Shown: in pieces, positions 1,684 to 51,446 of the stretch
Layout: every line of letters begins with the position of its first letter
Numbering within the stretch: position 1 is the stretch's first letter
Source: Candidatus Taylorbacteria bacterium RIFCSPLOWO2_01_FULL_48_100
GTDB taxonomy: Bacteria; Patescibacteriota; Minisyncoccia; Phycocordibacterales; UBA10002
Direction: 5' to 3'
Assembly (NCBI GenBank): GCA_001821135.1
Contig: MHSA01000012.1
Coordinates: forward strand, 6,341-70,340
DNA length: 64,000 bases
Notes under the pieces: model-generated
Told to the model about the DNA's origin: nothing
What the model saw: the letters and a program-made list of their open reading frames with translations, nothing else
The model's database searches: none
Translations under genes and position numbers: made by a program

Positions 1684-4164
1684 ATGTCAGATGCTAAAAA
1701 GGCGAAAGGGGGTCCGCTTCCGGATGGTGTTCCTGCCGGAGGGCGGATTGCGGGGCGCGAAATAACGACCGAGATGCGCGAGTCGTATCTTGACTACGCG
1801 ATGTCGGTCATAACTATGCGCGCGCTCCCAGATGTGCGCGACGGACTCAAGCCCGTGCATCGCCGCATTCTCTACGCGATGCACGAAATGGGGCTCGCGG
1901 CGTCTGCGAAGTTTCGTAAATCGGCGGCGGTGGTCGGCGATGTTCTAGGCAAGTACCACCCGCACGGCGACATTTCCGTATATGATGCGCTTGTGAAAAT
2001 GGCGCAGTCGTTTTCTTTCCGATACCCGCTGATTTGGGGGCAAGGAAATTTCGGATCTGTGGACGGCGACTCGCCCGCAGCGATGCGCTATACAGAGGCG
2101 AAAATGTCGCGCGTTGCGGGTGAGCTTCTGCGCGATTTGGAAAAGGAGACGGTTGACTGGCGCCCCAACTACGACGCGACACGCAAAGAGCCGACTGTTC
2201 TTCCGACTGGAGTGCCGAGCTTGGTACTGAACGGCACGCTCGGCATTGCCGTCGGTATGGCGACCAACATCCCGCCACACAACTTAAAAGAAGTGGTGGA
2301 TGCAACAGCGCACATTATAGACAACCCCGATGCGACCACAGAAGACCTCTTGCATTTCGTGAAAGGCCCTGACTTTCCGACTGGCGGCGTTGCTTACAGC
2401 GCGAAGGACATTGCGCACGCGTACGCGACTGGCAAAGGTCCCGTCGTAGTGCGAGGCGAGGCGGAGATTATTGAAGAAAAAGCGGGACATTCACAAATCA
2501 TCATTTCCTCTATTCCGTACCGTGTAAACAAAGCGGAATTGATTATACGGATTGCCGATCTCGTGCGCGACAAAAAGCTTGAAGGTATTAAAGGGCTTCG
2601 CGACGAATCAACAAAAGATATCCGCATCGTGATTGACTTAAAACAGGGTGCGTACCCAGAAAAAGTGCTTAACGCGCTCTACAAGCATACGCAGTTAGAA
2701 GATGCATTCCATTACAACTGCGTCGCGCTTGTGGACGGCGTGCCGGAAACCCTCTCGCTTAAAGCACTTTTGGAAGCGTTCGTTGAACATCGCAAAGAAG
2801 TTGTACGCCGCCGCAGCGAGTTTGACCTCGCGCGCGCGAAGGAGCGCGAGCATATTCTATTAGGGCTTACGATTGCGCTAAAAAACATAGACGCGATTGT
2901 TAAGTTAATAAAAAATGCGAAAGATGTGGACGAGGCGCGCGCGGGGCTGAGCAAAACATTTAAGCTATCGGAAATACAAGCGAATGCGATTTTGGAAATG
3001 CGCCTGCAGAAGCTCGCGGGTTTGGAGCGCAAGAAAATTGAAGACGAACTACTTGATGTGCAGAAGTTAATCGGCGAACTGGAAGACCTTCTTGCGCATC
3101 CGAAAAAGATTCTCGGTGTCGTGCGCAAGGAACTCATTGAAGTCGGCGAGAAGTATGGCGACGAACGGCGGACACGGATTGTTAAAACAGGAGTTGCGGA
3201 ACTTTCTGACGAGGATTTAATTCCCGACGAGGAAAGTGTTCTTGTGTTTACGCGCGGCGGCTATGTAAAGCGCACCGCTCCAGATGAGTACCGCAAGCAA
3301 AAGCGCGGCGGTGTCGGCGTTGTTGATTTGGATACGAAAGAAGAGGACTTTGTTGTAAGCACTCTCTCCGCGTCAACGCACAGCGACCTCTTGTTCTTCA
3401 CCGACCGCGGCAAGGTGTATCAGATGAAAATGTACGAAATTCCCGAAGGGAAGCGCGCTACGCGCGGCAAGTCCATTGCCAATTTCCTTGCGCTTGCGTC
3501 GGACGAGCGCGTTACCTCCATTCTCCCAATGCCTAAAACAACAAAAGCGCTCGCAGGGCTCGCGCTGATTATGATAACGAAAAACGGCATCGGCAAGAAA
3601 GTCGCGGCAGAAAGCTTTCACGATGTGCGCCGTTCTGGACTCATTGCAATTTCGCTAAAAACGGGCGACGAACTCATCTCCGCATCGTTTGTAGAAAAAG
3701 GCGATGAATGCGCCGTCGTAACTTCAGGCGGGCAGTCCATCAGATTTAGAGAATCGGATATTCGCGCAATGGGGCGCGGTGCGGGAGGCGTGCGCACCAT
3801 AAAATTACGAAAAAGCGACATCGTTGCGGGTGCTCAAGTAGTAAAAAGGGGTGTAGAAAAAACAGCACTTTTCATTCTTTCTGAGCACGGGTACGGCAAG
3901 GCGACTTTATTTAAAGAATACAAAACGCAAAAGCGCGGCGGCTCGGGCATCAAGACAGCGAAAGTAACAACAAAGACAGGGAAGGTAATCGCGGCGCGCG
4001 TACTCTCCGACGGAGGAGAAGAAGAGGTGATTGCGATTTCCAAAAAGAGCCAGGTAATTCGTATTGCGGCGTCGGAAATACCGCACCTCGGGCGAGCGAC
4101 GCAAGGCGTGCGCATTATGCGACTCCGCGACGGCGATGCGATTGCGTCAGTTACCGTTCTCTGA
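1684..4164 (+). CDS. gyrA: DNA gyrase subunit A
   Basis: 826 aa. N-terminal catalytic region ([28 protein letters not shown]) and C-terminal beta-pinwheel repeats are present. Confidence 0.95.
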
Positions 4165-38460: not shown

Positions 38461-39438
38461 ATGAACCCAGAAAGTTTTCAGAACAATGCGGTGTTTTGGA
38501 TTGAGACGGACAAAATAAAGCCGAACCCGTTTCAGCCGCGCCGCGAGTTTGACCCCGAGAAACTCCGCGACCTATCCGAGTCAATCCGCGCGTACGGCGT
38601 GCTTCAGCCGCTCGTCGTAACACGCAAGGAGGTGGTGAAAGATGACGGGGGTATTGTTGTTGAATACGAATTGCTTGCGGGCGAGCGGCGCCTCCGCGCC
38701 TCAAAACTTGTCGGATTACCACATGTGCCGGCGCTTATCCGCGCGGGCGAAAACAGCGACCGCGAAAAGCTTGAAATATCCATTATAGAAAACCTCCAGC
38801 GCGAGGACTTGAACGCCGTAGAACGCGCGCGCGCGTTCAAGCGGCTTGCCGACGATTTCGGTTTTAAGCATCACGAGATAGGCACGCGAGTTGGTAAGAG
38901 CCGCGTGTATGTTACGAATACGATGCGGATTCTAGATTTACCAAATGAAATTCTTGACGCGGTTTCAAGCGGTATTATAAACGAAGGACACACCCGTCCG
39001 CTTTTAATGCTCGTAGATCGTCCAGAAGAGCAGACGGTTCTTTTTAAAGAAATCTCGGTGAAGAAGATTACTGTGCGCGAGGCGGAAGAGATTGCGCGGA
39101 AAATTGCCGTTGACCGTGCGCGGAAGAAAGATGTCACTGTTGACCCGGAGCTCGTGGCGATTGAAGGCAAGCTCCGCGAGTCGCTCGGAACGCGTGTGCA
39201 TATTGAAAAGCGCGAAAATGGCGGGAAGATTCTCATTGATTTCTTTTCAACTGATGACTTGCTCGCGATTCTAGCGATGCTGGAATCAAAGGAGAAACGG
39301 AGTCCCTCCGAAATGATTGACCGCCATCTTGCAAAAATGAAAGCGGAAAAGCCGCCAGTCGCGCAAGAAAATACCGAAAAAGACGAACCACAAGAAGATG
39401 AAGAAGAACTCTACTCCGTCCGCAATTTTACCGTTTAG
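38461..39438 (+). CDS. parB: ParB/Spo0J chromosome partitioning protein
   Basis: ParB box (GERRLRA) and HTH region. No parA gene adjacent. Confidence 0.85.
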   Translation: MNPESFQNNAVFWIETDKIKPNPFQPRREFDPEKLRDLSESIRAYGVLQPLVVTRKEVVKDDGGIVVEYELLAGERRLRASKLVGLPHVPALIRAGENSDREKLEISIIENLQREDLNAVERARAFKRLADDFGFKHHEIGTRVGKSRVYVTNTMRILDLPNEILDAVSSGIINEGHTRPLLMLVDRPEEQTVLFKEISVKKITVREAEEIARKIAVDRARKKDVTVDPELVAIEGKLRESLGTRVHIEKRENGGKILIDFFSTDDLLAILAMLESKEKRSPSEMIDRHLAKMKAEKPPVAQENTEKDEPQEDEEELYSVRNFTV

Positions 39439-39520
39439 TTTTTGCGATATAGACAGATTATATATATTATGCTAGGCTAATTATAGAAAAAACAAATCTT
39501 AAAATAAAGAGAGGTTAAGA

Positions 39521-39901
39521 ATGACTGTATTAGATTTGGCGAAACTACTCTTGGAAAAGCAAGGATGGACACATCAGAGATTATCGAAAGAGTGTGGCAC
39601 TAGCAGACAGAATATACAAAGATTAATTTCTGGAAAGCCGCGCAAAAAGAAAGGATTTTATTTGGGTGTTCTAAGTGCCGCGTTTCGTTATGGGCTTGAA
39701 GCTGAGGCGATACATGTGATTGTTGGTTCCACTAAAGCGTTGCCAAGTATTCTTCGCGCAGTAATTATGTATCCGGATATCACCCAAGAAGAACTCGCGG
39801 AAATTCGCGAAGCGGAGAAAATCACGCACATGTATTCATTGCCGATCGAAGTGATTAGTTCAATTGTTACAGCAAACCGTTTGAAGAAAAATAAAAAATG
39901 A
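39521..39901 (+). CDS. XRE-family HTH DNA-binding protein
   Basis: HTH (QRLSKECGTSRQNIQRLISG). AT-rich. Confidence 0.55.
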   Translation: MTVLDLAKLLLEKQGWTHQRLSKECGTSRQNIQRLISGKPRKKKGFYLGVLSAAFRYGLEAEAIHVIVGSTKALPSILRAVIMYPDITQEELAEIREAEKITHMYSLPIEVISSIVTANRLKKNKK

Positions 39902-40002
39902 TTTTTCAGAAACACACCGACGACCAGCAATGGCCGGCGGTTTTCTTTTATAAAGTTATAAACATGTATAGTTTTGTTCTGTTGCACAAGTAGTGCTATT
40001 CT

Positions 40003-40839
40003 TTGTGCATGGGTAGGATAAGAATAATTTTACAGAAAGATGTTCTAGAAAAGATGTATGTAAAAAAGAACCTAACGCCTGTTGAAATTGGGAGGCGATT
40101 GAAATGCAGTTTTAAGACGGTCCGCAATCGCCTAAAAGAATTCGGCATTCCTTTTAAAAATCCCGCATTAGCTCGAATGCGGTATCAAAAGTTTGATTGT
40201 ACACACGATCCATTTATTCGCTCGTACATGCTTGGATTTCGGCTCGGTGATTTGAATGTATATAAAAGGGGAGAACATTCGGAGACAATAGTCGTGCGTT
40301 GTCACACCACCCACAAAGCTCAAGTGTTGGTCATTCAATCATTATTTAATCCATTTGGCCGCGTTTCGGTAACACCTCGAGAAGAGCATTTTACAGTAAA
40401 TTGTTTTCTTAATCGGAGTTTTGAGTTTCTTCTTCCTAAAAACGAGCGGGTTTGGCAGTGGATAAAAGACGGTGATTCTGTTGCGCAGAGTTTCATTGCG
40501 GGTTATGTTGATGCTGAAGCCAATTTTATTATCAATCAAGGGCGTGCTCGTTTTAAAATTGATTCCTATGACTACGCAATATTAGAGTGGATATGTTCTT
40601 GGCTTTATAAGAAAAGCATTTCTTATAGTTACAGGTGCATTCGCAAGAAAGGACCATCGTGGAGAAATCAACCTCCTTTAAACGGAGATTTATGGCGGTT
40701 GAATATCAACGAAGCAGGTTCACTGGAAAGATTTATAAAAGAGATTTTTCCTTTTTTACGCCATGCGCATCGGATTAGGGATGTAAAAAAATGTATCACC
40801 AATATCAAATTAAGAAGAAAAAATGGCTCAATTAAATAA
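40003..40839 (+). CDS. LAGLIDADG homing endonuclease (double-motif) with N-terminal HTH
   Basis: Two LAGLIDADG-type motifs (SYMLGFRLGDLNV and SFIAGYVDAEANF). AT-rich. Overlaps the lepA start by 17 nt. Confidence 0.65.
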   Translation: MCMGRIRIILQKDVLEKMYVKKNLTPVEIGRRLKCSFKTVRNRLKEFGIPFKNPALARMRYQKFDCTHDPFIRSYMLGFRLGDLNVYKRGEHSETIVVRCHTTHKAQVLVIQSLFNPFGRVSVTPREEHFTVNCFLNRSFEFLLPKNERVWQWIKDGDSVAQSFIAGYVDAEANFIINQGRARFKIDSYDYAILEWICSWLYKKSISYSYRCIRKKGPSWRNQPPLNGDLWRLNINEAGSLERFIKEIFPFLRHAHRIRDVKKCITNIKLRRKNGSIK

Positions 40840-42622
40840 CATCAGAAATTTCTGTATCATAAGTCATGTGGACCACGGAAAGTCCACCTTGGCAGACCGA
40901 CTACTAGAGATTACCGGTACGATTGAGAAGCGCAAGATGCGCGCGCAGGTGCTGGATTCTATGGATCTTGAGCGCGAGCGCGGTATTACGATAAAGATGA
41001 CGCCTGTTCGTATGGCGTATCAGGAATACATTCTGAATCTTATAGACACTCCAGGGCATATTGATTTCTCGTATGAAGTATCGCGCGCTTTGCGCGCGGT
41101 TGAAGGCGCGGTGCTTCTTGTGGATGCAACACAAGGCGTGCAGGCGCAGACCATAACTGTGCTACACGCGGCGCAGGCGGCTGGGCTCACCATTATTCCA
41201 GTCGTGAACAAAATTGATTCGCAACTCGCGCGTGTTCCCGAAACGAAAAAAGAAATCGCGTTATTGCTTGGGTGCGGAGAAGGCGAGATTTTAGAGGTTT
41301 CTGGAAAAACTGGGCAATGGGTACCAGAACTTTTGGAGGAAGTTATCAAACGAGTACCACCCCCTCGCCCCGCCGACTCGGCACTCCCCCTTAAACAAGG
41401 GGGAGATGGATTTAGGGCACTTATTTTTGATTTTAAATATTCAAACCACGCGGGCGTTGTAGTGTACTGCCGAGTTTTTGGCGGCACGATGGCGAAGGGC
41501 GCGCGATTGAAGTTTGCCGCGGCGGGCAGAGAGTTCACCGTAATAGAAGTCGGCACCTTTTCGCCGGAAGAAACGGCTGCGAACGCGCTCTCGGCTGGAG
41601 AAATTGGGTACATTGTAACCGGTGTGAAGGAACCGGGTGTTGCGTCAGTCGGCGATACGGTAGTTGAGGTAAAGGGTTCGCTCTCTGCACTCCCTGGCTA
41701 TGCGCGCCCGAGCCCAGTCGTGTGGGCGAGCTTCTTTCCTGAAAGTGGAGACGAATTTAACGCGCTTCGCCACGCGCTCGGGCGGCTTCGTCTCTCGGAT
41801 TCTGCGTTTACTGCGGAAGAAGAGTCGTCGGGTGCCTTGGGGCGCGGATTCCGATGTGGGTTTCTAGGAATGCTTCATTTGGAAATAATTTCAGAGCGGC
41901 TTCGCCGCGAATTCAAAATAAATCTAGTTGTAACGCATCCATCTATCGCATATGAAGTACTAACGAAGCGCGTTAAGAAAATTACTGCGTACACCATTAT
42001 GCAGTTTCCTGAACACGGAGAGGTTGAGGAAGTTCGCGAACAGTGGGTGGCGGCGGAGCTCATTTCGCCGCCCGAATATCTTGCGCCCGTGATGCTCCTT
42101 CTCGGCAAGCACGAGGCGCGGGTTGGGGAGACCGAAAATATAGGCAACCGCTTCGTGGTGCGTTTTGAGGCACCACTCAGGGAACTTATGCGCGGATTTT
42201 TTGATGAACTAAAAAGCGTGTCGTCGGGTTTTGCATCCTTATCTTACCGCCTTCTCCGTGAGCTTCGGAAAGCAGATGTCGTAAAAATGGAAATCCTTGT
42301 TGCAGATGACCCTATGCCTGCATTTGGACGGGTCGTTTCGCGCCGCGCTGCAAACGACGAGGCGGAAGCCGTTGTGGAAAAACTATCAAAAATCCTCCCT
42401 CGCCAACAGTTTGAACTGAAAATACAGGCGCGCGTTGACGGAAAGATTGTCGCATCGCGGCGGCTCACTGCGCTCCGAAAAGATGTAACGGGTTACTTGT
42501 ACGGCGGAGACCGCACGAGGAAAATGAAGTTGTGGAAACAGCAGAAAGAAGGTAAGAAACGGCTTGCCGAGCGCGGGCGAGTAGAGATACCCGCCGAAGC
42601 GTTCGTGAAGATGCTTCAGTAG
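40823..42622 (+). CDS. lepA: translation elongation factor 4
   Basis: NFCIISHVDHGKSTLADRLL G-domain and the LepA-specific C-terminal domain. Confidence 0.9.
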   Translation: MAQLNNIRNFCIISHVDHGKSTLADRLLEITGTIEKRKMRAQVLDSMDLERERGITIKMTPVRMAYQEYILNLIDTPGHIDFSYEVSRALRAVEGAVLLVDATQGVQAQTITVLHAAQAAGLTIIPVVNKIDSQLARVPETKKEIALLLGCGEGEILEVSGKTGQWVPELLEEVIKRVPPPRPADSALPLKQGGDGFRALIFDFKYSNHAGVVVYCRVFGGTMAKGARLKFAAAGREFTVIEVGTFSPEETAANALSAGEIGYIVTGVKEPGVASVGDTVVEVKGSLSALPGYARPSPVVWASFFPESGDEFNALRHALGRLRLSDSAFTAEEESSGALGRGFRCGFLGMLHLEIISERLRREFKINLVVTHPSIAYEVLTKRVKKITAYTIMQFPEHGEVEEVREQWVAAELISPPEYLAPVMLLLGKHEARVGETENIGNRFVVRFEAPLRELMRGFFDELKSVSSGFASLSYRLLRELRKADVVKMEILVADDPMPAFGRVVSRRAANDEAEAVVEKLSKILPRQQFELKIQARVDGKIVASRRLTALRKDVTGYLYGGDRTRKMKLWKQQKEGKKRLAERGRVEIPAEAFVKMLQ

Positions 42623-49370: not shown

Positions 49371-51446
49371 TTATGCAAGAGACCATTTTTGCACTATAAG
49401 CATACCTTCTTTTTCTTTCGGCTGCTTCCACAACTGCCAAATTTCTTCCGTAATAAACGGCATAAATGGATGGAGGAGTTTCAGTGTGTTTTCTAAAAGG
49501 TAATGAAGTGTCGCGCCTCGCTCCTGCATTGTTTTGCTTTCCTCAATAATTTCGTCTGCGAGGCGATGCCATAGATAATGATAGATTTTTTCGGCGGCGA
49601 GGTGGAAGCGGTACTCCTCCATATCACTGGTGATGTCGCGCGCAAGCGCGTCAAACTCTTTTTTGAGTGCTTCATCTATTTCACCTGTATTTTCGCGCGA
49701 GAGAATATATCGCGCGATATTCCACACCTTGTTTGCAAAGTGTTTATATCCTTTTATTTTATCCTCTGAAATGTTGGTGTCCGTCCCGGGCGTGTTGCCG
49801 ACAATGAGTGCCATTCGCCCCGCATCCGCGCCAAATTTCTTTGCGACATCTATCGGGTCTATGCCGTTGCCGAGGGATTTTGAGAATTTCCTGCCCTGCG
49901 CATCGCGCACAAGGCCGTTCAAATAAACAGTGCGAAACGGAACAACTCCGAGTGCATATTCCGACATCAGAATCATCCGCGCCACCCAGAAAAATAAAAT
50001 ATCAGAACCGGTTTCCAGCACATCAGTCGGATGGTATGTTTCTAAATCCTTTGTTTTCTCAGGCCAACCGAGCGTAGAAAATGTCCAAAGTCCAGATGAG
50101 AACCAAGTGTCCAGAGTATCTTCCTCTCCGTCAATCGGAATCTTGTGCCCGTACCAAATCTGGCGCGAGATGCACCAGTCGCGCAAGTTCTCAATCCAGT
50201 GAAAATATGTTTTCGCAAAGTGTTCAGGAATTATTTTTATCTCACCTTTTTCCACCGGCTCGCGCATAAGCTCTTTCAGCGTTTTATTTCCGCGCACTGG
50301 AATCGGCTTGTTTACATCTATAAACCACTGCAATTTCGGAAGCGGCTCAATGATGCCGCCAGTGCGTTCCGCAGTCGCAATATTGTGCGTAATGTCTTCT
50401 TCCTTTTCTAATAATCCTTTTTCTTTGAGCCATGCGTTCACAATTTCGCGCGCTTCCGTAACCTTCTTACCTTCTACGAGCGCACCCGCATTTTGCATCC
50501 GCGCATATTCATTGATAATGATGCGTGTCTTGTCCAGGCCGTTCCGCTCCGCAATCTCCCAATCCGTCTGGCTATGCGCGGGAGTTATACCAACCGCACC
50601 GGTGCCGAATTCCGGGTCCACTTCCGTGTCTCCTACAACTTTGATGGAAAGCGGAACGCCGGCAAAGTCGGCGAACGCAAATGTCTGCCCGATATATTCC
50701 TTCAACTTTCCATCGGGATGCACCGCAACGCCCGTGTCGCCTAGTTTTGTTTCGGGGCGCGTCGTAGCAATCGGGATAGGGAAGTCCTTCGCGTAGCGAA
50801 AGGTATACAATTTTGTTTTCTGTTCAACATAAACAATCTCATCGTCTGAAATTGTTGTTTGGCCTTTCGGGTCCCAGTTGACAATGCGATTACGGCGGTA
50901 AATAAGCCCATCATCGTGCATCATTTTAAACATCGCACGGACTGCCTCACTGCGTTTTTCATCAAGTGTAAACGCCTCACGCGACCAGTCGCAACTCGCC
51001 CCCATCGCCTTTATTTGTGAGACGATAGTATCGTGGCTCTCTTTTGCAAATTTTTCCACGCGCTTCAGGAATTCATAGCGCCCAAGGTCGTGCCGTGTTT
51101 TCTTTTCTGTTTTATAAATATCTTTCTCAACGCGCGCCTGCGTTGCAATCGCCGCATGGTCGGTGCCTGGAATCCAGAGTGTCTTATATCCGCGCATCCG
51201 TTTGTAGCGCACCAATATATCTTGAATAGTTAGCATCAGCGCGTGCCCCATATGCAACACGCCGGTTACATTCGGCGGAGGCATAATGATAGTGAATGGC
51301 TTCGGTTCCGGAGCTTTGCCCTGCTTCGCCAAGGCTACGGCAGGGTGCGCCTCAGGCGCAAAAAACCCGCTGTCTTCCCACTGCTTGTAAATCCGCGCTT
51401 CGGTATCAGCGGATTGGTACGGCTTCGTGAGTTTTTCGGGCAGCAT
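49371..51446 (-). CDS. valS: valine--tRNA ligase (reduced, no C-terminal coiled coil)
   Basis: HIGH region (PPPNVTGVLHMGHA) and KMSKS region (KFSKSLGN). Editing domain present. Confidence 0.9.
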   Translation of the reverse strand: MLPEKLTKPYQSADTEARIYKQWEDSGFFAPEAHPAVALAKQGKAPEPKPFTIIMPPPNVTGVLHMGHALMLTIQDILVRYKRMRGYKTLWIPGTDHAAIATQARVEKDIYKTEKKTRHDLGRYEFLKRVEKFAKESHDTIVSQIKAMGASCDWSREAFTLDEKRSEAVRAMFKMMHDDGLIYRRNRIVNWDPKGQTTISDDEIVYVEQKTKLYTFRYAKDFPIPIATTRPETKLGDTGVAVHPDGKLKEYIGQTFAFADFAGVPLSIKVVGDTEVDPEFGTGAVGITPAHSQTDWEIAERNGLDKTRIIINEYARMQNAGALVEGKKVTEAREIVNAWLKEKGLLEKEEDITHNIATAERTGGIIEPLPKLQWFIDVNKPIPVRGNKTLKELMREPVEKGEIKIIPEHFAKTYFHWIENLRDWCISRQIWYGHKIPIDGEEDTLDTWFSSGLWTFSTLGWPEKTKDLETYHPTDVLETGSDILFFWVARMILMSEYALGVVPFRTVYLNGLVRDAQGRKFSKSLGNGIDPIDVAKKFGADAGRMALIVGNTPGTDTNISEDKIKGYKHFANKVWNIARYILSRENTGEIDEALKKEFDALARDITSDMEEYRFHLAAEKIYHYLWHRLADEIIEESKTMQERGATLHYLLENTLKLLHPFMPFITEEIWQLWKQPKEKEGMLIVQKWSLA

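Follow-up and report, generated by a model that had tools for sequence, protein, structure and literature searches.

In a 64,000-nt stretch of the genome of Candidatus Taylorbacteria bacterium RIFCSPLOWO2_01_FULL_48_100 (contig MHSA01000012.1; this whole stretch is called the window, and its coordinates are counted from its first nucleotide), a homing endonuclease gene (HEG) of the LAGLIDADG type lies immediately upstream of lepA, the gene for elongation factor 4 (EF4). Comparison with related loci makes it likely, in our judgment, that the HEG entered the lepA reading frame itself, at the codons of the G1 motif (P-loop; IIAH^IDHGKST), as part of a cassette that brought along a replacement for the lepA 5′ end. 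The best explanation of the locus is a cassette of ~880 bp, about 39989–40870, in which the HEG is the cargo. The original prediction, made from this sequence, had described parB, an XRE-type helix-turn-helix (HTH) open reading frame (ORF), a free-standing LAGLIDADG gene and lepA in this order, with the last two overlapping by 17 nt, and that layout is exact: parB (38461–39438), the HTH ORF (39521–39901), the HEG (40009–40839) and the whole lepA ORF (40823–42622) lie on the forward strand, and the overlap comprises nucleotides 40823–40839. What changes is the relation of the HEG to lepA. Rather than merely abutting it, the cassette appears to sit inside the lepA frame, where it supplies a new start codon and leaves an orphan of the old 5′ end upstream.

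This reading was drawn from two sets of loci. The first was anchored on the HEG and consisted of 80 loci retrieved by a family-alignment search of one genome per GTDB species; the second was anchored on LepA and comprised 80 metagenome loci whose LepA is 58–88% identical to that of the window, 66 of them with enough upstream sequence. lepA alleles that lack the HEG almost all encode the universal ..IRNF(S/C)IIAHIDHGKST. Of 50 HEG-bearing alleles, 49 deviate from IIAHIDHGKST, as do 5 of 77 whose upstream DNA yielded no HEG (Fisher p = 3e-28), and the changes, which include ILAHI, IMAHV, IISHV, IIAHV, VISHV, IVAH(V/I) and HIDAGKST, fall within IIAHI or on the next H. The element-borne codons of the window specify IISHV in place of IIAHI, and its own lepA allele reads ..TTCTGTATCATAAGTCATGTGGACCACGG.. 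at the site; in L081, the nearest relative, which has no HEG, the canonical G1 sequence is AACTTCGTCATCATCGCGCACATTGACCATGGCAAATCC and the site segment is ..AACTTCGTCATCATCGCGCAC ATTGACCATGGCAAATCC...

A second line of evidence comes from the other side of the HEG, where at least 12 loci carry a second, truncated lepA start, M..IRNFCIIAH, that always ends at the same codon. Translations of these orphans include METEKIRNFCIIAH (L014), MDQEKIRNFCIIAH (L017), MNSTENIRNFCIIAH (L028), MNKIRNFCIIAH (L029), MQNIRNFSMIAH (L008), MNNIRNFCIVAH (L034) and MENKSIRNFVVIAH (L043), and the same truncated start precedes the HEG in L015, L018, L019, L023 and L033. An invaded locus consists of the old lepA 5′ end cut after the His codon, a spacer of 20–30 nt, the HEG, and a new lepA ATG that, with ~16 codons, overlaps the HEG stop and continues into the resident lepA from (I/V)DHGKST. 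In any one genome the canonical IIAH stands in the orphan and the variant in the copy borne by the element, a contrast that controls for phylogeny. In 40 of 49 loci the sequence ATTATTGCACA, allowing up to two mismatches, precedes the HEG start by 18–33 nt, compared with 1.3% of control windows from the same loci.

The corresponding parts can be traced in the window. The decayed orphan of the original lepA 5′ end (39964–39988; ATG..TTTTGTTCTGTTGCACA) reads F-C-(S-V)-A-H, from ..NFCIIAH, lies 20 nt 5′ of the HEG ATG, stops at the presumed point of insertion or cleavage and can be aligned with the orphans of L001, L002 and L099, which have decayed as much. The putative replacement 5′ end covers codons 1–16 (MAQLNNIRNFCIISHV; 40823–40870) and is delimited by its codon changes and by a homology breakpoint; the resident lepA body, from ..DHGKST onward (40871–42622), matches Pfam GTP_EFTU and LepA_C. 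In blastn, nucleotide homology to L081 ends with the parB terminator remnant (39922–39949) and begins again precisely at 40871 (GAC, Asp17 of HVDHGKST). The codons for RNFxIIAHI have diverged by 41% between the window and L081 and by 30% between L099 and L104, whereas the next 35 lepA codons have diverged by only 14% and 9.5%, respectively; this excess, in the two closest pairs of alleles with and without the HEG, gives p = 0.003–0.013; pairs farther apart are saturated. The cassettes of the window, L001, L002 and L099 have the N-terminus MAQL(N/S)N in common, while their HEG-less sisters start with MKN...

The position of the HEG is fixed and its occupancy is patchy. Among the 80 loci retrieved with the HEG, all 48 in which the HEG is 37–80% identical to that of the window have it directly 5′ of lepA on the same strand, with overlaps of 1–73 nt and, in nearly every case, an HEG stop codon that overlaps or abuts the lepA ATG. 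Their hosts include Taylor-, Nomura-, Staskawicz-, Berkel-, Wolfe-, Howlett-, Nealson-, Portnoy-, Falkow-, Moran- and Kerfeldbacteria, among others. What is conserved is the pair HEG-lepA. The parB-lepA order, which had been taken for core synteny, is found only in the window and L081, and the genes upstream of the closest HEG relatives are unrelated to those of the window. Conservation of the HEG at this place in distant relatives (48 of 48) is what a core gene would show, but only one of the 66 lepA loci from close relatives, that of L099, contains it. L081 lacks it and is closely related to the window (LepA 88%, ParB 92% and MiaA 76% identical; lepA body 84% identical in nucleotides and 88% in amino acids). 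In a neighbor-joining tree of LepA, tips with the HEG are scattered among tips without it as isolated tips or small clades (the window, L001/L099, L002, L005 and L003/4/6/10), with a minimum of seven changes of state. Moreover, the HEGs of the window, L001, L002 and L099 are 76–80% identical to one another and their LepA proteins are 65–67% identical, a sign of horizontal transfer to which the low GC content of the cassette adds. A fixed site with sporadic occupancy therefore argues for a site-specific mobile element and not for a core gene, and the conservation of position most likely reflects target specificity. Presence/absence polymorphism at a single fixed site among related genomes also bears out the suggestion that this place marks a homing site.

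The identity of the encoded protein is most evident from its fold. The ORF has 278 codons when read from a TTG at 40003 and 276 when read from the ATG at 40009; the latter is probably the true start, because members of the family begin with MGRxKI and a TAnnnT box precedes this ATG by 6 nt. Both of the LAGLIDADG-type motifs seen at the outset are present, LGFRLGDLNVY at residues 77–87 (40231–40263) and IAGYVDAEANF at residues 165–175 (40495–40527). In an alignment of 37 homologues, D83 (GFRxGDLNVY) and D170 and E172 (AGYxDAEGNF) are invariant, as are 37 columns overall, and all 37 sequences have an acidic residue at the C-terminal end of both LAGLIDADG helices. An AlphaFold2 (AF2) model (mean predicted local distance difference test score, pLDDT, 90.3) comprises a three-helix N-terminal module followed by two tandem, packed LAGLIDADG domains, each an alpha-beta-beta-alpha-beta-beta-alpha half, with elements in the order H70–83/E/E/H/E/E and H161–172/E/E/H/E/E/H; motif 1 forms the end of helix 70–83, and beta strands follow. 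All of the top 50 Foldseek matches of this model in the PDB are LAGLIDADG enzymes (E = 2e-9 to 8e-7, probability 1.0), with PI-PfuI the best (E = 2e-9), then I-DmoI, I-AniI, E-DreI and I-OnuI. Sequence comparison by itself was not enough, and a structure prediction was required. Direct searches of Pfam, NCBIfam and PDB with the window protein gave near-empty or sub-threshold results; Pfam LAGLIDADG_3 scored 17.2 bits over residues 162–248 (E = 0.006), below its cutoff of 22.5, but many homologues do carry this type of domain (PF14528), and a relative associated with metG in L053 scores 27.9 bits on a LAGLIDADG Pfam profile. A profile of the family compared with the PDB returned only a weak match to PI-PfuI, in which motif 2 aligns to SFIAGLFDAEGHV, and a spurious match to a designed repeat protein. 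On the strength of the fold and the invariant catalytic acids, the 276-aa product is a protein of the LAGLIDADG homing endonuclease type, with cleavage activity predicted.

Preceding the double LAGLIDADG core of this single-chain protein is the HTH module (residues ~10–58; 40030–40176), whose modeled helices span residues 12–21, 26–32 and 37–46. It matches Pfam Sigma70_r4 and HTH_Mga weakly and PHROG 8446 at E = 6e-8, and it occurs in one to four tandem copies among relatives. The gene is present once in the 64-kb window; its product has a 100% identical counterpart, annotated as hypothetical, in a Candidatus Taylorbacteria metagenome-assembled genome (MAG) and hundreds of homologues of ~275–280 aa in Patescibacteria. 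The copy in L025 is likewise an intact ORF, ending in ..QQRCK and a stop codon. Two loci contain frameshifts that may reflect either decaying copies or sequencing errors: that of L028 (4945–5010) is in a poly-A run of the N-terminal HTH region of the HEG, and that of L042 (5353–5990) is in lepA past ~200 codons.

The 126-aa HTH ORF next to parB does not belong to the cassette. Its assignment is sound, as it passes Pfam HTH_3 (27.8 bits, cutoff 23), but none of 49 HEG-bearing loci has a homologue of it beside the HEG, in disagreement with its proposed role as the partner of the HEG. Between the two genes lies a remnant of the intrinsic terminator of parB, a hairpin and T-run at 39922–39949 (forward strand) that we regard as host DNA: over 28 nt it is 89% identical to positions 2088–2115 of L081, where the terminator directly follows the parB stop. 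The folding energies are −12.5 kcal/mol (z −2.0) in the window and −18.6 kcal/mol (z −3.3) in L081; a generic sigma-70 scan did not flag the remnant, which was identified by blastn and folding. Because this remnant separates them, the HTH_3 ORF and the HEG most likely represent two separate insertions. With the parB stop on one side and the former parB terminator on the other, the HTH_3 ORF looks like an independent small insertion. Thus, an AT-rich two-gene insert holds in part, in that GC content is 0.34–0.42 over 39200–41000 versus about 0.48–0.59 in parB and lepA and neither ORF is present in L081, but it is divided by host sequence. In L081 the order is parB, terminator, a 73-aa ORF, a 32-aa fragment and lepA; the 73-aa ORF of this spacer (2125–2441) has no Pfam match, and the fragment that follows it, MNIYYHPRFRRSFRNLENQVKAQVEESIALFR, resembles what we take to be the N-terminus of a RelE/ParE-type toxin. 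If this resemblance holds, the parB-lepA spacer would be a landing place for small selfish modules.

These data make it highly improbable that the locus is a two-gene mobile element, XRE-type HTH gene plus HEG, that landed in the parB-lepA spacer, or a relic of an intron or intein. The AT-richness of both ORFs and their common absence from L081 would fit the former, yet the HTH_3 gene does not accompany the HEG elsewhere and the terminator remnant lies between them. As for the latter, the HEG is free-standing, as first proposed: Pfam detected no Hint (intein) domain in its product, only LAGLIDADG_3 and HTH, and cmscan against Rfam over 39300–41200 at E ≤ 1 detected no intron RNA. We accordingly rejected both an intein-encoded and a group I intron-encoded HEG, and the thought of a former intron was abandoned as well, since the locus contains a duplicated lepA 5′ end and not splice junctions.

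A different reading is that the protein has been domesticated as a DNA- or RNA-binding factor and is now an immobile, fixed partner of lepA in an operon. Almost all copies are intact and under purifying conservation, as the invariant columns attest, the stop/start overlap with lepA is tight in nearly every locus, and LAGLIDADG protein and LepA similarities are correlated. We nonetheless consider domestication unlikely. A fixed operon partner is hard to reconcile with an HEG in only one of the 66 close-relative lepA loci and none in the sister genome, with orphan lepA fragments and altered target codons, which are signatures of insertion and not of an ancestral operon, or with members of the same protein family that precede metG, ileS and other genes. 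In WhiA, the LAGLIDADG regulator with which such a protein would be compared, the catalytic acids are lost, whereas here both are invariant; a WhiA-like regulator was rejected on these grounds and on the N-terminal position of the HTH and the patchy distribution. It is also improbable that lepA was invaded once, in an early ancestor within the candidate phyla radiation (CPR), and that the insertion was then inherited vertically as a fossil and lost many times, its endonuclease being inactive or irrelevant by now. The decay of the orphan in the window and its relatives and the overall correlation of LAGLIDADG protein and LepA identities would suit such a history, and enzyme activity is deduced here from sequence and structure. 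But that history calls for many precise reversions to a single canonical lepA, when only five HEG-less loci have any orphan, and for an HEG that evolves more slowly than LepA in the clade of the window (80% versus 65%). Furthermore, undecayed orphans with intact start codons in several loci imply recent events, and the catalytic residues have been kept.

We therefore return to the homing cassette, against which several observations must be weighed. The Fisher test on the G1 codons was made without phylogenetic correction, on sets of HEG-bearing and HEG-less alleles that were sampled differently. The identities of the LAGLIDADG proteins and of LepA are correlated overall (r = 0.75), so that much of the inheritance must be vertical and common between transfers. 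Nearly all HEG copies are intact ORFs; a purely selfish HEG would not usually be so well preserved, and some host benefit or addiction is conceivable. The orphan of the window has 3 mismatches in 11 positions, and ~11% of random windows match as well; it is weak alone and is made credible by its position and its alignment to the orphans of L001, L002 and L099. Across loci the orphans are, in addition, unusually uniform in their last 11–17 nt, with wobble positions less variable than those of functional alleles and exact matches in 15 of 49. This segment may thus be carried by the element or be under selection as a −35 box, which blurs the left boundary of the cassette. Finally, both the site of cleavage and the presumed immunity of invaded alleles are deduced from comparative patterns.

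A simple cassette model also leaves five HEG-less loci unexplained. L104 (~640–790), L106 (~2460–2610), L108 (~3340–3500), L123 (~3350–3505) and L141 (~1960–2120) contain an orphan lepA start (..IRNFxIIAH) and a structured insert of 45–75 nt ahead of an intact canonical lepA; the insert occupies the very point at which the HEG cassette is inserted elsewhere. The inserts have conserved ends, CYCRGTA ... CTACGGRRCARG, around a hairpin with a covarying stem. They had no match in Rfam except for AsrC, which was dismissed as a mere antisense overlap with the lepA coding sequence. These inserts may be scars of HEG deletion or a second, non-autonomous element that uses the same site. Split lepA matches in L014 and L017 were considered as another kind of HEG scar and rejected. 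They reflect in-frame insertions in a variable loop of LepA after residue ~66, between ..MTPVRM.. and ..LNLIDTPGH.., of ~29 aa in L002 and longer in L014 and L017; such loop insertions in CPR LepA proteins split tblastn matches and bear no relation to the HEG.

The common truncation point of the orphans and the altered codons of the invaded alleles, from which we infer site-specific double-strand cleavage, point to a recognition site of ~20 bp centered on GCN CAY/ATT GAY, the codons of IIAH/ID. LAGLIDADG enzymes typically recognize about 20–22 bp, tolerate variation at wobble positions and leave 3′ overhangs of 4 nt. We propose that the enzyme would cut an HEG-less allele at the canonical ..ATT ATT GCN CAY ATT GAY CAY GG.. 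and that repair from an invaded allele, with the recipient's lepA 5′ end and the gene body serving as homology arms, would copy the cassette in. In the product, the recipient's own 5′ end would become the orphan, and the start carried by the element would be fused in frame to the resident lepA body. The insertion would split the recognition site, and the invaded allele is expected to be immune because the changed IIAH(I) codons of the element do not rebuild it; the displaced 5′ end would then decay upstream. The replacement residues appear to be ones tolerated in paralogous translational GTPases, as AHVDHGK presumably resembles EF-Tu and AHIDAGK EF-G.

Expression of the HEG may depend in part on the sequence that it disrupted. 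In 44 of 49 loci a TAnnnT hexamer precedes the HEG start by 5–9 nt, usually by exactly 6, and many loci have the arrangement TTGCAC-N16-17-TATAAT-N6-ATG, in which TTGCAC comes from the orphan half-site. The window has TATTCT-N6-ATG, with the putative −10 box at 39998–40003 on the forward strand, 6 nt 5′ of the HEG ATG. A generic sigma-70 promoter scan did not call this promoter, which is proposed on the basis of conservation across loci. The pattern suggests that the HEG mRNA is leaderless and that the target half-site supplies its −35 element. Translation of lepA is probably coupled to that of the HEG through the stop/start overlap. Such coupling would penalize loss of the HEG and may account for the intact copies.

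More distant homologues repeat this design at other genes. Among those 31–38% identical to the HEG of the window (L049–L080), 22 loci have the HEG directly 5′ of metG, the gene for methionyl-tRNA synthetase (MetRS). In four loci of DPANN archaea an HEG with three HTH repeats and the MetRS gene are joined in a single reading frame, as ORFs of 856–1015 aa (L050 4992–8036, L054 2762–5347, L056 645–3212 and L063 1651–4665), which would yield either a fusion protein or a MetRS translated from an internal start. Upstream of the HEG, metG 5′ ends persist as orphans that break off immediately before the HIGH motif, including in L071 and L056; examples are MKNKNNFYITTPIYYQND (L066), MTKKKFYITAAIPYVNA (L073) and MTKFYITTAIPYLN (L079). 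Hosts include Woese-, Wildermuth- and Yanofskybacteria, Woese- and Pacearchaeota, Iainarchaeum and a Thaumarchaeota MAG. As judged by comparison of these loci, metG appears to be an independent replicate of the lepA design. The window itself contains a class I aminoacyl-tRNA synthetase-like gene at 49440–51302 on the reverse strand, 25–27% identical to MetRS of L053, with no relative of the HEG beside it.

Family members were also seen 5′ of ileS (L055, L161), of a NIF3 gene followed by metG (L165/L166), of an aminotransferase gene (L167) and of an M20 peptidase gene (L049/L051), and in L057 and L064 the HEG is convergent, tail to tail, with the 3′ end of uvrA. These placements suggest further target specificities. 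A profile search of 1.84 billion cluster representatives yielded 356 clusters (at 50% identity) with E ≤ 1e-30 and 1826 with E ≤ 1e-10; two to five N-terminal HTH repeats are present in many of them. It is tempting to view these elements as a large undescribed class of prokaryotic homing elements that crosses CPR and DPANN lineages, invades essential genes, among them lepA, metG and ileS, at the codons of N-terminal nucleotide-binding motifs, does so without an intron or intein, and combines a leaderless promoter, a LAGLIDADG enzyme bearing HTH repeats and an immunizing 5′ end, with MetRS fusions in some DPANN archaea; we advance this generalization tentatively, at somewhat less than even confidence.

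If the homing cassette is real, replacement of the 5′ end would be a third lifestyle of HEGs in essential protein-coding genes, besides introns and inteins, and would operate in CPR and DPANN chromosomes, those of the two radiations of ultrasmall cells. It would account for odd variants of the LepA G1 motif and of the MetRS HIGH region in these genomes and for the mis-annotated giant HTH-LAGLIDADG-MetRS fusion ORFs, and the family would be a source of natural meganucleases whose predicted targets lie in coding sequence that is universally conserved. The distribution of the elements suggests gene flow among CPR lineages and possibly between bacteria and archaea. The proposed target and the predicted immune alleles make the model directly testable. 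In the literature, which we covered incompletely, neither HEGs linked to lepA or metG in CPR bacteria or DPANN archaea nor an earlier account of a homing design that replaces 5′ ends in bacteria or archaea came to light, which is not proof of novelty.

Several known systems share features with the lepA cassette. Free-standing phage HEGs (T4 Seg and Mob, F-CphI), the agents of intronless homing, cut HEG-less alleles near their own insertion point and spread by double-strand-break repair with co-conversion of the flanks, while sequence differences in the donor provide immunity. The cassette would follow the same logic, with its HEG outside any intron or intein. However, the phage enzymes are of the GIY-YIG, HNH or EndoVII type and their genes are intergenic, with no gene end rebuilt, whereas the cassette encodes a LAGLIDADG enzyme, lies within an ORF and duplicates a gene terminus. 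WhiA, a domesticated regulator that has lost its catalytic acids and is vertically conserved, shares the double LAGLIDADG scaffold and an HTH domain, but its HTH is C-terminal; the protein of the window has an N-terminal HTH and invariant acids and is patchily distributed. I-DmoI, PI-PfuI and I-AniI have the same two-domain alpha-beta-beta-alpha-beta-beta-alpha fold, with an acidic residue ending each LAGLIDADG helix, but they are only 12–17% identical to the window protein, are encoded by introns or inteins and lack N-terminal HTH repeats.

Closer in host range are the LAGLIDADG enzymes encoded in rRNA insertion sequences and group I introns of CPR bacteria, elements that are removed from the transcript (PMC11270868). 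They have in common with the cassette the host radiation, the enzyme superfamily and homing to highly conserved sequence; the cassette differs in its protein-coding target, its N-terminal HTH and its replacement of a gene end instead of RNA excision. The closest known analogues, in our assessment, are the mobile ORFs (mORFs), or gene hybrids, of fungal mitochondria, described for atp6 of Allomyces macrogynus, for atp6, atp9, cox2 and nad3 of Glomus, for atp9 of Rhizopus and for cox2 of Mortierella (PMC3630166). There, a LAGLIDADG or GIY-YIG ORF is accompanied by a foreign C-terminal gene segment, and the native C-terminus stays behind as a duplicate (PMC3630166). In both cases an endonuclease ORF interrupts a protein-coding gene with no intron or intein around it, the terminus that it carries is fused in frame, the native terminus becomes a non-functional duplicate, and the inserted terminus, horizontally acquired, is more diverged than the rest of the gene. 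In contrast, mORFs belong to organelle genomes, follow the gene body and substitute its 3′ (C-terminal) end, whereas the lepA cassette replaces the 5′ end, with the HEG upstream, its own start codon, apparently its own promoter and an overlap with the start of the host gene. Its setting also differs: CPR and DPANN chromosomes, nucleotide-binding-motif codons of translation genes, and an enzyme with an additional N-terminal HTH. By this analogy the lepA cassette would be a mirror image of the mORF, and a variant of that design rather than a member of it.

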